A stretch of DNA of 64,000 nt from an uncultured Pseudomonadota bacterium (GTDB lineage: Bacteria; Pseudomonadota; Gammaproteobacteria; Steroidobacterales; Steroidobacteraceae): positions 174,023 through 238,022 of the forward strand of contig CAWCGL010000009.1 in NCBI GenBank assembly GCA_963794975.1, in the 5' to 3' direction. Made by a program: the position numbers and the translations under genes. This document shows positions 50,640-56,357 of the stretch, in pieces; position 1 is the first letter of the stretch; every line of letters starts with the position of its first letter. Under the pieces are notes generated by a model that searched no databases, had not been told where the DNA came from, and worked only from the letters and a program-made list of their open reading frames with translations.

Positions 50640-53600
50640 ATGACCGACGCCTCTCGTGACGCCATTTCCCTGCGTGGCGCGCGCCAGAACAACCTGAAGA
50701 ATCTCGACCTGGATATTCCGCTGCACGAGCTGGTCGTCGTCACCGGGGTCTCCGGTTCGGGCAAGTCGTCGCTGGTGTTCGACACCCTGTATGCGGAAGG
50801 CCAGCGCCGTTACGTCGAGACCTTCTCGCCCTATGCGCGGCAGTTCCTCGACCGCATGGACAAGCCCCAGGTCGAGTCCATCCATGGCATCCCGCCGGCA
50901 ATTGCCATCGACCAGACCAACCCGGTGCGCACCTCGCGCTCCACCGTCGGCACCATGACGGAGCTGAATGACCATCTGAAGCTGCTGTTTGCGCGCGCCG
51001 CGGCGCTCTTCTGCCGGCGCTGCGGCACGCCGGTGCGCCGCGACACCGCCGAGAGCATCTACGCGGACATCCTGGCCCGTGCCAAGGCCGGCGGTGACCC
51101 GCGCCTGGTGATGAGCTTCCCGGTGCCGGTGCCGGAGAACTTCACGGTCGAGGAAGTGCGCGAGCTGCTGTCCCGGCAGGGCTACACACGCTTCCTGGAC
51201 CTCCCGGCCCCGGCGGCCGCTCCCGCGCCGCCGGCTGCGGCACGCAAGGGCCGCAAGCGCGCCAAGGCAACCGCCGCCAGTGTCACGCTCGAGGTGGTCC
51301 AGGACCGCCTGCGCGCCGGCAATGCCGAGCGCGGTCGCGTGCTGGAATCGCTGGAGGCGGCGCTGCGTGTCGGGCGCGGCCGCGTCAACATACACCTCGT
51401 TGATGACCAGGATCCGCCGCAGCGCACGGCCACGTGGCGCTACTCGAGCGAACTGCACTGCGCGGAATGCGACCTCGCCTACCGGGCCCCGGCGCCGAGC
51501 CACTTCTCATTCAATTCCCCGCTGGGCGCGTGCGAGACCTGCCGCGGCTTCGGCCGCACCATCGGCATCGACTTCGGGCTCGTCATCCCGGATGAGACCA
51601 AGACGCTGCGCACCGGGGCAATCAAGCCCTGGCAGACCAAGTCGTACACGGAATGCCAGGAGGACCTGGAGAAATTCGCCAAGCTGCGCGGCATCTCGCT
51701 GGACACACCCTGGCGCGAGCTCAGCCATGAGGCGCGCAAGTGGGTGATCGAGGGCGAGGGCGCGTGGTCGAAGAAGGTCTGGTATGGAGTGCGGCGCTTC
51801 TTCGCGTGGCTGGAGACCCGCGCCTACAAGATGCACGTGCGCGTACTGCTGTCACGCTATCGCGCCTACACCCCATGCACCGCCTGCGACGGGGCGCGCC
51901 TGAAGAGCGAGGCGCTGCTGTGGCGCATCGGCAGCCACGCCCTGGCCGCGAGTGCCCTCGGCTCGATGCCACGCATGCGGCCGCACGGAGTCGACTGGAG
52001 TGAGGCTGCGCTCGCGGCGCTGCCGGGCCTCTCCATCCACGACCTGATGCTGCTGCCGGTGGAGCGTTGCCACGAATTCTTCGTCAACCTCGCCCTGCCG
52101 CAGCCGCTGGATGAGGCCACCGACCTGCTGCTGGGGGAGATCCGCGGGCGCTTCCGCTACCTCTGCGACGTCGGCCTGGGCTACCTCACGCTTGACCGCC
52201 AGTCGCGCACGCTCTCCGGCGGCGAGGTGCAGCGCATCAACCTCACGACCGCGCTCGGCACTTCCCTTGTGAACACGCTGTTCGTGCTGGACGAGCCCTC
52301 GATCGGCCTGCATCCGCGCGACATGCAGCGCGTGATCGGGGTCATGAAGCGACTACGCGATGCCGGCAACTCCCTGGTGGTGGTCGAGCACGACCCGCAG
52401 ATCATGCTCGAGGCCGACCGCATCCTTGATCTCGGGCCCGGTGCCGGCGAGCGCGGCGGAGAGGTCGTCTTCTTCGGCACTCCCCGGGAGATCCGTGCGC
52501 ACCAGGCGTCCCTCACCGGCCAGTACCTGAGCGGCGCGAAGTCGCTGGCGCCCGCCCGCGAGGGCACGGAAGGGGTGCGCGAGCCCGCCCCCGGCGAGGT
52601 CGTGGCCGAGGCGGTCTCCAACCGCTGGCTCGAGTTGCGCGGGGCCTGCGAGCACAACCTGAAGAACCTCGACGTGCGCATCCCGCTCAAGCGTCTGGTG
52701 TGCGTAACCGGGGTGTCGGGGTCCGGCAAGTCCAGCCTGGTGGAGGACGTGCTGTACCCGGCGCTGCTGAAGTACCGCGGCAAGCCCACCGAGGCGCCGG
52801 GGCAGTTCGCCGGCCTTTCCGGCGCGGAGCTGATCGACGACGTCGTGATGGTGGACCAGAACCCCATCGGCCGCACCACGCGCTCCAATCCTGCCAGCTA
52901 TGTCGGCGCCTTCGATGCGATCCGCGCGCTGTTCGCCGCGGAACCGGCCGCGCAGGAGCGCAAGTACACCCCGGGCACGTTCAGCTTCAACTCTGGCAAT
53001 GGCCGCTGCCCGACCTGCACCGGCAACGGCTTCGAGCACGTGGAGATGCAGTTCCTCTCGGACGTGTACCTGCGCTGCGCGGACTGCAACGGCCGGCGCT
53101 ACCGCGACGAGGTGCTGGAGATCCGCCGCGAGGGCGCGGACCGGCGCCGCCTGAGCATCGCCGACGTGCTGGACCTTACGGTGAGCGAGGCGCGCGTGTT
53201 CTTCGCCGATGCTCCCGAGGTCGCCCAGCGGCTCGCGCCGCTGGCGGACGTGGGACTCGAGTACGTCAAGCTCGGGCAGCCGGTCCCCACCCTCTCCGGC
53301 GGCGAGGCGCAGCGGCTGAAGCTGGCGGGCCACCTCGCCGAGGCCGCCTCGGTGCTCTCGAGCACCACGCATCGCGGCAAGCTGTTCCTGTTCGACGAGC
53401 CCACCACCGGGCTGCACTTCGAGGACGTGGCGAAGCTGCTGCGCGCCTTCCGCAAGCTGCTGGTGGCGGGCCACTCGCTGCTGGTCATCGAGCACAACCT
53501 CGACGTCATCCGCGCCGCCGACTGGATCATCGACATGGGCCCGGAGGGCGGCGAGCGCGGCGGCGAGATCGTATGCGCGGGCACCCCGGCGCAGGTGCGC

Positions 53601-56357
53601 GCCGAGCCGCGCTCGTTCACCGGCCAGGCACTGGCAGCCTACGACCAGGCGCTCTCCCCCGCCGCGGCGGTCGCCGCGCTGGCGGTCGCGGAGCCGGCGG
53701 CCGCCTATGGCGGCAGCCGGCGCGGCCGCAACGCCGTGGTGATCCACAATGCCCGCGAGCACAACCTCAAGGGCATCGACGTCGAGATCCCGCGCGACCG
53801 CTTCACCGTGGTGACCGGGGTCTCCGGCTCAGGCAAGTCCACGCTCGCCTTCGACATCCTCTTTAACGAGGGCCAGCGCCGCTACCTCGAGTCCCTCAAC
53901 GCCTACGCGCGGCAGTTCGTGCAGCCGGCCGCCCGTCCCGACGTGGATGCGATCTACGGCATCCCGCCCACGGTCGCCATCGAGCAGCGCACCAGCCGCG
54001 GCGGCCGCAAGAGCACGGTCGCAACACTCACCGAGATCTATCACTTCCTGCGCCTGCTGTACGTGAAGCTCGGCACGCAGTACTGCCCGGACTGCGACGT
54101 GCCCATCGAGCCGCAGAGCCCCGCCTCGATCGCCGCGAGACTGCTGCGTGACTACAGGGGCAAGCGCATCGCGCTGCTCGCCCCGCTGGTGGTTGCCCGC
54201 AAGGGCTACTACACCGACCTGGCCAAGTGGGCGGCGAAGAAGGGCTTCAAGCAGTTGCGCGTGGACGGGACGCTGCTGCCCACCTCGCCGTGGCCGCGCC
54301 TGTCGCGCTTCCGCGAGCACACCCTGGAACTGCCGGTCGCCGAGGTGGATGTCAGCGCCAAGAACGAGACGGCCCTGCGCGCCGCGCTGGCGCGCGCGCT
54401 GGACTTCGGCAAGGGCCTGGTGCACGTGCTGGGGCCGAAGTCGCAGCGTGTCACGGTGTTCTCCACCAAGCGCGCCTGCCCGTCCTGCGGCAGGAGCTTC
54501 TCGGAGCTGGACCCGCGCCTGTTCTCCTTCAACTCCAAGCACGGCTGGTGCGAGTCCTGTTTCGGCACCGGAGTGGAGATCCCGGGCTTCAGCGAGGAGC
54601 ACAGCGGCGAGGAGATCTGGTGGAACGAGTGGTACGCGCACTCGCCGCAGGCGTGTGGCGCCTGCGCCGGCGAGCGCCTCAACCCGACCGCGCTCAACGT
54701 GCGCTTCCGCGAGCGCTCGATCGCAGCCCTCGCCGGGCAGTCGGTTGCCTTGAGCCAGGAGTTCTTCGCCAAGCTGCGCCTGGGCCCGCGCGAGCGCGAG
54801 ATCGCCCGCGACCTGCTGGCCGAGATCCGCGCGCGGCTGAAGTTCCTCGACCGCGTGGGCCTGGGCTACCTGCAGCTGGACCGCTCCGCGCCGACCCTCT
54901 CCGGCGGCGAGGCGCAGCGCATCCGCCTGGCCGCGCAGCTCGGCTCCAACCTGCAGGGGGTGTGCTACGTTCTGGACGAGCCGACGATCGGCCTGCACCC
55001 GCGCGACAGCGAGATCCTGCTGGACTCGCTCAGCGAGCTGGCCAGCCACCGCAATACCCTGGTGGTGGTCGAGCACGACGAGGACACCATCCGGCGCGCA
55101 GACTTCGTGCTGGACCTCGGGCCGCAGGCCGGCGTGCGCGGCGGCGAGGTGGTCGGCGCCGGCACGGTGAAGGACTTGATGCGCAGCCCGCGCTCGGTCA
55201 CCGGCCGCTTCCTGCGTGAGCCGCTGCTGCATCCGGCGCAGCCACATCGCAGCGTTTCCGCCGCCACCCCGCGCCTGAAGCTGGAGCGCGTCGCGCTGCA
55301 TAACATCAAGGACTGCGAGGTCAGCATCCCGCTCGGCCGCCTGGTGGTCATCACCGGCGTGTCCGGCTCGGGCAAGTCGACGATCGCCCGCGACGTGCTG
55401 TACGCGAACCTGCGGCGTCTGCTGGGCGAGAACGCCGCGCGCGGCGGGGCGCGCCGGCGCGCCGGCGCCGGCAAGCTCATCGGCTGCGGCGCACTCTCCG
55501 GTATGGAGCACATCGACCGCGTGCTGGAGGTGGACCAGACGCCGATCGGCAAGACGCCGCGCTCCTGCGCTGCCACCTACATCGGCTTCTGGGACGAGAT
55601 CCGCCGCATCTATGCCGGCACCACCGAAGCGCGCATCCGTGGTTACACCACGAGCCGCTTCTCCTTCAACACCACCGGCGGGCGCTGCGAGGGCTGCGAG
55701 GGCCAGGGCGTGAAGACCATCGAGATGAGCTTCCTGCCGGATGTGAAGGTGCTGTGCGACGTGTGCAACGGCCGGCGCTTCAACTCCGAGACGCTCGCGG
55801 TGCTGTGGCGCGACAAGAGCATCGGCGACGTGCTGGCGATGGACGTTGATGACGCTGTGGGCTTCTTCGCCGCCCATCCGCGCGTGCACCATGCGCTGAA
55901 GCTGCTGCAGGACGTCGGCTTGGGCTACCTCACGCTCGGCCAGCCGAGCCCGACGCTCTCCGGGGGTGAGGCGCAGCGCATCAAGCTGGTCACCGAGCTG
56001 TCGAAGGTGCGCGACGAGGTGGCGCGCGGCCCACGGCACAAGGCGCAGCACACCCTCTACGTGCTGGACGAACCGACGGTCGGGCTGCACATGGCCGATG
56101 TGGAGAAGCTCACCCACGTGCTGCACCGGCTGGTGGCCGCCGGCAACACGGCGGTGGTCGTGGAGCACAACCTCGATGTCATGGCTGAGGCGGACTGGAT
56201 CATCGACATGGGACCGGAGGCCGGCGACGGCGGTGGCCGCATCGTCGCCGAGGGCACCCCGGCGCAGGTGGCGCGGCGCCGCAAGCACTCGCATACCGGG
56301 CGCGTGCTCGATGACTTCCTGCGCGAGCGTACCCTGCCGGTGGCGGCGGCCGGGTGA
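50640..56357 (+). CDS. tandem-duplicated UvrA-like ABC ATPase (1905 aa, two complete UvrA units in one chain)
   Basis: Four Walker A sites are present ([11 protein letters not shown] at about aa 35 and 680, [11 protein letters not shown] at about aa 1015 and 1575). There are four LSGGE signature motifs. Each half carries zinc modules (CRRCG../[22 protein letters not shown]; CPDCD../[22 protein letters not shown]; [17 protein letters not shown]; [17 protein letters not shown]). Confidence 0.9.

Follow-up and report, generated by a model that had tools for sequence, protein, structure and literature searches.

The stretch of DNA analysed here (the window, 64,000 nucleotides of contig CAWCGL010000009.1 from an uncultured member of the Steroidobacteraceae) carries on its + strand, at positions 50640..56357, a tandem uvrA gene that encodes two UvrA units in a single chain. 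The open reading frame (ORF) starts with an ATG at 50640, ends with a TGA at 56357 and comprises 1905 codons plus the stop codon in one uninterrupted frame; the DNA around it has a G+C content of approximately 70%. By motif search, four Walker A motifs (aa 36, 691, 1060, and 1573) and four LSGGE signature motifs (aa 525, 885, 1420, and 1773) were identified in the translation, along with four Walker B motifs of the DEPxxGLH type, four Q-loops and four H-loops, all of which are intact in the four ATP-binding cassette (ABC) modules. Twelve CxxC pairs at the expected positions make up six zinc modules, three per unit. The K37 and K646 equivalents do not vary in either half of any tandem that was examined. 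The whole protein scored 1963 bits against TIGR00630 (cutoff 730) and 2008 bits against NF001503 (cutoff 1147). Scored singly, half 1 and half 2 reached 932 and 1014 bits against TIGR00630, both above the curated cutoff, and 931 and 1057 bits against NF001503, both below the cutoff of that model. Motifs and TIGR00630 scores thus agree with the original prediction, made from the sequence alone, of one chain that combines two genuine UvrA units, with four ABC modules in all and with two Walker A/signature pairs and zinc modules of its own in each unit.

UvrA homology stops near aa 985 and restarts near aa 1028, close to the boundary at aa 950–985 that had been proposed. The Ala-rich linker in between (approximately aa 986–1027; 53595..53720, + strand) has a length of about 34–42 aa depending on its delimitation. 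The two halves share 33–43% identity at the protein level and about 64% at the DNA level; the clear divergence expected from the original prediction, which had noted that the halves are not identical at the nucleotide level, was thus observed, and it proved to be asymmetric. DNA identity this low means that the halves stem from an old duplication and not from an assembly repeat. Ratios of nonsynonymous to synonymous substitution rates (dN/dS), determined against a relative with 95% identity, were 0.095 for half 1, 0.118 for half 2 and 0.16 for the linker (range 0.16–0.33), demonstrating purifying selection on both halves as well as on the segment that joins them. The 120 closest clusters listed (1898–1975 aa, 80–95% identity, 99–100% query coverage) are all full-length and have the same architecture; their named members belong to the Steroidobacteraceae or to unclassified proteobacterial metagenome-assembled genomes. 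All four ATPase motif patterns are matched in at least 118 of these 120 relatives, and the layout of the zinc modules is common to all 120. We concluded that the gene is a real, intact and conserved single chain of two fused UvrA units. No credible LexA box was found for the gene in scans for E. coli-type and Xanthomonas-type boxes, as had been anticipated, and a promoter scan revealed no consensus sigma-70 promoter.

Half 1 (aa 1–985; 50640..53594, + strand) is a nearly complete class I-like unit, which aligned end to end with the UvrA structure 2R6F (767 bits) and comprises the Walker A motifs at aa 36 and 691 and three zinc modules. Its UvrB-binding-type domain (aa 129–273; 51024..51458, + strand) matches the Pfam profile PF17760 only partially, at profile positions 68–108 alone and with 28 bits. 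The residues D222, R223, R233, and E239 of this domain correspond to D205, R206, R216, and E222 of E. coli UvrA, which contact UvrB and Mfd. AF2 models were calculated for the separate halves from alignments whose rows are all at least 81% identical, and in these models confidence is confined to the two UvrB-binding-type domains and a few segments of the core. In half 1 the domain is locally confident, and the helix bearing R233 and E239 is well formed. The same domain contains a low-complexity insert rich in Ala, Pro, Arg, and Lys (approximately aa 186–214; 51195..51281, + strand) with a dN/dS of 0.44 and a predicted local distance difference test score (pLDDT) below 50 at residues 190–213, by which it is predicted to be disordered. 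Its length varies among relatives, where the spacing of the first zinc module (Zn1) ranges from 146 to 165; every other zinc spacing is fixed. An insertion domain is present in half 1 only (aa 302–412; 51543..51875, + strand; PF17755, 57.5 bits) and, with a dN/dS of 0.024, represents the most constrained segment of the protein. In the signature-II DNA-contact patch of half 1 (aa 762–780; 52923..52979, + strand), R762, Q772, R774, and T780 occupy the positions of E. coli R712, R722, R724, and R730 according to the alignment, so that two of the four arginines (R722 and R730) are gone.

Half 2 (aa 1028–1905; 53721..56354, + strand) has intact ATPase sites and a reduced set of accessory elements. 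Its best matches among PDB structures are 3PIH, 9GXK, and 2R6F (approximately 800 bits), its Walker A motifs lie at aa 1060 and 1573, and it contains three zinc modules. The UvrB-binding-type domain of this half (aa 1153–1279; 54096..54476, + strand) is locally confident in the AF2 model, shares the order of secondary-structure elements with its counterpart in half 1 and matches PF17760 with 88.6 bits over profile positions 1–106 of 109. At the positions of E. coli D205, R206, R216, and E222, it has A1234, E1235, A1245, and A1251; the fold is kept and the contacts are gone. Judged by the higher Pfam score, half 2 was considered as the UvrB-binding half, a candidate assignment that was rejected once the contact residues were aligned. 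The PF17760 scores are misleading in this case since the fully matching half 2 lacks the contact residues while the partially matching half 1 keeps them. In place of the insertion domain of about 110 aa, half 2 has a 31-aa connector (54561..54653, + strand) between the CxxC pairs at aa 1304 and 1339, which makes the cysteine pairs of the second zinc module (Zn2) 31 aa apart, compared to 111 aa in half 1. No PF17755 match was obtained in half 2, and the PDB alignment skips residues 284–371 of 3PIH; the short Zn2 spacing is present in all 120 close relatives. The signature-II DNA-contact patch of half 2 (aa 1655–1673; 55602..55658, + strand), in contrast to that of half 1, keeps all four arginines (R1655, R1665, R1667, and R1673). 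Examination of the UvrB-binding and insertion domains in each half, a check suggested along with the original prediction, thus located contact residues and an insertion domain in half 1 and neither of them in half 2. The earlier description of the protein as two complete units has to be revised in both directions: half 2 lacks the insertion domain and the UvrB contacts, and half 1 lacks two of the four signature-II arginines.

The distribution of these losses was followed through the 120 close relatives, which represent clusters with 80–95% identity, and through 23 diverse representatives of a tandem group designated group A, which are 35–95% identical to the window protein. For the contact residues, both halves of 31 tandems were aligned to a canonical set made up of E. 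coli UvrA and five further UvrAs. In E. coli numbering, D205, R206, and R216 are kept by half 1 in 120/120 close relatives and by half 2 in none of the 120; E222 is kept in 119 of the half 1s and in five of the half 2s. The signature-II patch displays the reverse pattern. While R712 and R724 are arginine in all half 1s and all half 2s (120/120 each), position 722 is Q in every half 1 and R in every half 2, and position 730 is T in every half 1 and R in every half 2 (120/120 in each case). Among the 23 diverse group A representatives, R216, which is invariant in the canonical UvrA reference set, is present in 23 half 1s and in only two half 2s, and the D205-R206 pair behaves likewise. Of the 31 asymmetric representatives, none has R730 in half 1 and 22 have it in half 2; in 22 symmetric tandems, it occurs in 17 half 1s and 12 half 2s. 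The functional relevance of these residues has been established in E. coli UvrA: the R216A/E222A exchange disrupts the UvrB/Mfd surface, deletion of residues 131–248 abolishes nucleotide excision repair (NER), and a mutant with alanines at R712, R722, R724, and R730 neither binds DNA nor supports NER (PMC3025350). By computational inference, the reciprocal pattern of loss, which is consistent over more than 150 sequences and seems not to have been described, would leave one coherent UvrB-loading side.

The same polarity was found in named relatives. In a tblastn search of annotated plasmids and chromids, 134 Ralstonia records yielded full-length homologues with approximately 61% identity (60.5–60.8% for Ralstonia megaplasmid genes, with 99% of the query covered), and another full-length homologue came from Mycetohabitans rhizoxinica. 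For the gene on the Ralstonia solanacearum megaplasmid, RAST gives the name 'Excinuclease ABC subunit A, dimeric form' and Prokka the name 'uvrA_2'. In Cupriavidus metallidurans CH34, megablast revealed an intact single ORF for the tandem uvrA on CHR2. Like the window gene, the Ralstonia and CH34 tandems are stand-alone single ORFs (approximately 1945–1980 aa) with four Walker A motifs and about 61% identity over 99% of the length. Written as the residues at positions 205, 206, 216, and 222 followed by those of the arginine patch, the window protein has DRRE/RQRT in half 1 together with the insertion domain and AEAA/RRRR in half 2 without it; the corresponding motifs are DRRE/RLRT and GDAE/RRRR in Ralstonia and DRRE/RLRT and GDEE/RKRR in CH34. 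Ralstonia and CH34 thus combine an intact contact motif and insertion domain with the degenerate RLRT patch in half 1, and the reverse applies to half 2. A tandem uvrA of 1809 aa was also identified in Candidatus Kinetoplastibacterium crithidii (L002 10001–15430), an endosymbiont of trypanosomatids with a genome of 0.82 Mb (CP064915.1), with DRRN/RIRV and an insertion domain in half 1 and EELK/RKRR without insertion domain in half 2. A scan of the genome collection with this homologue, which employed AT-rich, symbiont-specific peptide patterns, yielded a single Kinetoplastibacterium locus; all other matches were ordinary uvrA genes of unrelated taxa with 30–48%, mostly 32–37%, identity. The loci were reused as a class I reference set. 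In Cupriavidus campinensis MJ1 (NZ_CP043441.1; L049 5761–11858), the two halves of the tandem lie in different frames that overlap within the linker, frame 0 ending at 9093 and frame 2 opening at 8940, which may represent a true split, a pseudogene or an indel error.

In these Burkholderiaceae, the tandem gene is an additional uvrA. The gene inventory of R. solanacearum lists two uvrA genes and one uvrB (PMC518961), and CH34 has 'uvrA2 (Rmet_4549)' in addition to the chromosomal uvrA (PMC2864759); the CH34 ORF was tied to this locus tag by location only. The Ralstonia/CH34 tandem, located on a chromid, is demonstrably a second uvrA, while the window gene is known from 64 kb of its genome. No second uvrA was found within this 64-kb window, and a look-up for an exact copy of the window protein matched no record. 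Since the tandem gene is an extra copy in Ralstonia and CH34, by orthology it is most likely an extra copy in the present organism as well.

A structural framework for the asymmetry is provided by the UvrA-UvrB complex of Mycobacterium tuberculosis solved by cryo-electron microscopy. Each UvrB is in contact with both protomers, through the UvrB-binding domain in one and the signature-II domain in the other, repositioning of the insertion domain of a protomer is coupled to the reorganisation of its UvrB-binding domain that permits UvrB binding, and both UvrA2B1 and UvrA2B2 complexes occur (PMC11985968). Applied to the tandem protein, this published geometry places all degenerate elements in one site. 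Site 1, composed of the insertion domain and UvrB surface of half 1 and the signature II of half 2, has all three parts conserved; in site 2, composed of the insertion domain and surface of half 2 and the signature II of half 1, all three parts are degenerate. We propose that the two units, joined by the linker of about 35 aa, fold back head-to-head in the manner of a UvrA homodimer, so that one chain would equal one dimer. The resulting pseudo-dimer would be polarised. Half 1 would contribute the sole insertion domain and the sole surface for docking of UvrB or Mfd, and half 2 the full signature-II DNA patch, which in the canonical complex adjoins the UvrB held by the opposite protomer. The symmetry mate of this UvrB-loading site would be degenerate through the contacts and insertion domain of half 2 and two DNA-contact arginines of half 1. 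The four intact ATPase sites would sense distorted DNA and pass it to one UvrB, as expected for an 'A2B1'-like machine, most likely as an accessory sensor beside a conventional uvrA elsewhere in the genome. We assign a probability of about 0.55 to this reading, that the tandem UvrA-family member acts as a polarised covalent pseudo-dimer that loads a single UvrB and is accessory to a conventional UvrA. The idea of a covalent pseudo-dimer in the original prediction is judged to be right, and intramolecular packing of the halves like a canonical dimer, with UvrB or Mfd recruited on one side only, would be the simplest explanation. More tentatively, group A tandems in general might be natural, covalently fixed 'A2B1' sensors in which one UvrB site was switched off by loss of three components from two halves; they might load one UvrB or dock one Mfd in a defined orientation and thereby provide a second entry point into NER beside the canonical UvrA dimer.

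To survey the spread of tandem UvrAs, we conducted an exhaustive search with one representative per 50%-identity cluster and analysed the best 150, mostly of 1500–2340 aa; double-length proteins rank high in this search partly since both halves score. Intact tandems with four Walker A motifs accounted for 103 of these 150. The type found in the window, in which half 1 is complete and half 2 lacks R216 and the insertion domain, comprises 22 of the 103, and nine others differ from it by keeping the half-2 insertion domain, raising the number of tandems with the polarity of the window protein to 31. Another 22 consist of two complete class I units, 13 lack the insertion domain of half 2 only, 15 are tandems of class II-like units without UvrB-binding domain, and the remaining 22 fall into eleven rarer combinations. 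The rarity implied by the original prediction did not hold, as more than 100 clusters at 50% identity are tandems and the labels 'dimeric form', 'uvrA_2', and 'uvrA2' are already in use for Ralstonia and Cupriavidus. In a neighbour-joining tree, the half-1 and half-2 clades of group A branch in parallel, which fits one old fusion. The halves of symmetric tandems interleave with canonical UvrAs, in one case as sister halves, which suggests that symmetric tandems are separate, younger duplications. Tree and census together point to several independent origins of tandem UvrAs. The linker has a median length of 32 aa in group A and measures 26–33 aa in the independently derived group B, the symmetric tandems, and these convergent lengths of about 30 aa support a geometric constraint.

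Several individual proteins of the survey deserve mention. P0230 (999 aa; L044 1208–4207) is a complete stand-alone UvrA placed inside the half-1 clade, with R216, E222, and the insertion domain kept and R730 missing. Its upstream neighbour does not resemble UvrA, and P0230 may be an un-fused relative or may pair with a partner encoded elsewhere. A second candidate for an un-fused single-length form, P0158, was rejected because its sequence runs off the end of the contig. The symmetric tandems P0132 (2334 aa) and P0138 (2343 aa) exceed the other tandems in length by about 400 aa and have DRRE and a nearly full arginine patch (RKRR) in both halves.

Upstream of the tandem uvrA and divergent from it, as originally predicted, an operon of the bufferin type, which belongs to the ribosomally synthesised and post-translationally modified peptides (RiPPs), is located at 48361–50330 on the − strand. 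It encodes MbnB/DUF692 (49134–50018, − strand), a DUF2063/HvfC protein (48361–49137, − strand) and a Cys-rich precursor of approximately 80 aa, which carries a signal peptide and recurring Cys motifs (HCSGVNSCKGQSACKSANNACKGQNSCKGKG). Further upstream, genes for pyridoxal phosphate (PLP)-dependent enzymes of the CBS (PALP+CBS) and Cys/Met-metabolism types follow (45701–48500, − strand). This arrangement, with the bufferin-type operon followed by the PLP-enzyme genes, is kept in the relatives with 95% (L046) and 83% (L001) identity. A Cys_Met_Meta_PP gene (L040 6433–7704) is also the divergent upstream neighbour of a distant tandem uvrA, P0123 (48% identity), and may be a remnant of old synteny. 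On the 3′ side lies a gene (56354..56887, + strand) whose product is DUF1579-like (weak Pfam match to DUF1579, below the curated cutoff) and bears a signal peptide; the GTG start of this gene overlaps the uvrA stop codon as GTGA at 56354–56357. The overlap, from which translational coupling to a secreted-protein gene had been read, is present in the window, and the pairing is not conserved: L046 has a convergent lactonase gene downstream of the tandem uvrA, and in L001 an operon for a resistance-nodulation-division (RND) efflux system lies between the tandem uvrA and the DUF1579 gene. As the DUF1579 gene is not adjacent to uvrA in either locus, the GTGA coupling is incidental. The region 3′ of uvrA appears as a variable spot (56354–57204, + strand, in the window; 15843–18043 in L046; 15844–22716 in L001), beyond which a 100-aa ORF and an M3 peptidase gene occur in all three loci, with an extra JmjC-type gene between them in L001. 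The loci of distant members have differing housekeeping neighbourhoods, and no shared partner, NER gene or biosynthetic cluster was found among the loci examined. The tandem uvrA is thus a stand-alone unit, and the downstream gene is outside the system.

Compared to the canonical class I UvrAs of E. coli, Geobacillus stearothermophilus (2R6F/3UWX), Thermotoga maritima (3PIH), and M. tuberculosis (3ZQJ), each half of the window protein likewise has two ABC and three zinc modules. Both halves are best matched by class I structures, and in half 1 the residues that contact UvrB occur together with the two accessory domains. The canonical protein is a chain of about 940 aa that functions as a homodimer with two insertion domains and two UvrB surfaces; the window protein, in contrast, joins two diverged units in a single chain of 1905 aa, has only one intact copy of each of these elements, and one of its arginine patches is incomplete. 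The window gene also differs in having no SOS box, and its halves are 43–47% identical to E. coli UvrA. With the class II/IIa proteins (UvrA2 of Deinococcus radiodurans, 2VF7; DrrC; Ecm16, 7SH1), it shares the status of an extra UvrA paralogue of uncertain role with intact ATPase sites. However, both halves keep Zn1 (cysteine pairs 127–145 aa apart) and PF17760, the absence of which defines class II (PMC9328131, PMC9241694). Moreover, class II proteins are of single length (approximately 800–840 aa) and their resistance members are encoded in antibiotic gene clusters, whereas the window protein is a tandem, and both of its halves score lower against 2VF7 and 7SH1 than against class I structures. 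Class II-like single-length UvrA paralogues were also encountered on plasmids, where the alignment begins at about query residue 280–320 and the UvrB-binding region is lacking; such paralogues are common on plasmids of Acinetobacter, Klebsiella, Enterobacter, Pantoea, Streptomyces, Staphylococcus, and lactic acid bacteria. The chlamydial long UvrA (NF001885/PRK00635, 1809 positions) likewise is of double length with four ABC modules, but the window protein scored 1176 bits against the NF001885 cutoff of 3054 and is not an orthologue. With the other tandem architectures, the window protein has the two UvrA units and the linker of about 30 aa in common.

A number of observations weigh against the polarised pseudo-dimer. 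For the two halves, AF2 gave models of poor overall quality, with pLDDT values of 53.7 and 49.5 and predicted TM-scores (pTM) of 0.44 and 0.30. The stand-alone half-1-like proteins P0230 and P0265 likewise lack R730, so that loss of this residue may predate the fusion and may not reflect degeneration of a site. E222 is not universal among canonical UvrAs, being present in two of the six members of a reference set that is small and dominated by Bacteroidota. R722, R724, and R730 are DNA contacts and not proven UvrB contacts, and the contact residues kept in half 1 do not prove binding, as their domain, which matches only the last third of PF17760, carries a disordered insert. In the neighbour-joining tree, the two half clades have a bootstrap value of only about 48%. 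The persistence of the tandem in the 0.82-Mb Kinetoplastibacterium genome hints that such a protein can be more than a spare copy. Finally, a full-text literature search found no study or experiment on any natural tandem UvrA, in line with the original statement that these proteins are poorly characterised.

Among other explanations, we consider it rather unlikely that the tandem gene encodes the sole housekeeping UvrA of its lineage, a fused dimer that performs ordinary global NER and whose asymmetry is tolerated drift. This would account for both halves exceeding the TIGR00630 cutoff and being closest to class I structures, for the strong purifying selection, for the stand-alone position among housekeeping neighbours in every lineage examined and for the retention of a homologue in the reduced genome of Ca. 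K. crithidii; the chlamydial long UvrAs, for which NCBIfam holds an equivalog model of their own (NF001885), would be a parallel. To our knowledge, the chlamydial protein is the sole UvrA of those organisms. Yet the closest named relatives, Ralstonia and Cupriavidus, carry the tandem as a second uvrA on a secondary replicon, and the losses are reciprocal, position-specific and invariant in 120 relatives and thus look like fixed specialisation, not drift. In addition, the halves reach only 43–47% identity to E. coli UvrA, compared to 51–52% for canonical UvrAs of other lineages, and an SOS box is lacking. It is improbable that the protein acts independently of UvrB in the way of the class IIa proteins DrrC and Ecm16, by ATP-driven removal or tolerance of non-covalent DNA binders or other DNA-bound obstacles, in line with the drug or lesion tolerance and non-NER functions that the original prediction had listed as possible. 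Class IIa proteins do work independently of NER (PMC9328131), plasmid-borne UvrA paralogues are common, the tandem is an extra uvrA paralogue in Burkholderiaceae, and of its two UvrB sites one is clearly non-functional. However, the Zn1 module and the fold of the UvrB-binding domain are kept in both halves, which align better to class I than to 2VF7 and 7SH1, and no relative occurred in a biosynthetic or resistance cluster among the loci examined. The conservation in half 1 of D205, R206, and R216 in all 120 close relatives, and of R216 in all 23 diverse ones, would be difficult to account for if the protein had no UvrB or Mfd to bind.

A role dedicated to transcription-coupled repair, with the single surface serving Mfd and weakened discrimination of damage and DNA making the sensor rely on recruitment by stalled polymerase, is an idea by analogy that we hold to be quite doubtful. 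The R216/E222 surface does bind Mfd as well as UvrB, E. coli UvrA without insertion domain is biased further towards repair of the template strand (PMC3025350), and the tandem, with a single insertion domain in place of two, also has a smaller number of DNA-contact arginines. But analogy is all that leads there, no mfd gene is linked in any locus examined, and no part of the protein is more conserved than the insertion domain that remains. A function as a component of the anti-phage system MADS is effectively refuted by a control: the PADLOC models mad3 and mad8 match the window protein with 508.6 and 207.7 bits, but housekeeping UvrA of E. coli scores 341.9 and 124.4 bits. As E. coli UvrA alone matches, the mad3 score reflects generic similarity within the UvrA family, and no methyltransferase or other MADS-type gene occurs nearby in the window or in related loci. 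More generally, the models PDLC04135 (mad3) and PDLC04140 (mad8) match ordinary UvrA, and any uvrA may be flagged as MADS if the context is ignored. An artefact, either a duplication during assembly or two genes joined by a sequencing error, is likewise refuted. The frame switch within the linker of C. campinensis MJ1 illustrates that breaks at this place do occur in deposited assemblies, but the divergence of the halves (64% DNA identity), the same single frame in 120 independent clusters, Ralstonia, and CH34, and the purifying selection on both halves and the linker leave no room for such an origin of the window gene.

The tandem form of UvrA is widespread, already labelled in databases and experimentally unstudied, and the window gene is a further member. 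Its relevance relates to a debate in the NER field on whether UvrA2B1 or UvrA2B2 is the working sensor and on the roles of the protomers and the four ATPase sites (PMC11985968, PMC6486640). Since any mutation in a homodimer hits both protomers, a single-chain UvrA allows each ATPase site, accessory domain and DNA patch to be mutated separately. The tandem family appears to have run this experiment on asymmetric UvrA by itself, and R. solanacearum and C. metallidurans CH34 are tractable hosts that have both a canonical uvrA and the tandem gene. The tandem uvrA is common in soil Proteobacteria, where the plain name 'excinuclease ABC subunit UvrA' hides a distinct paralogue.

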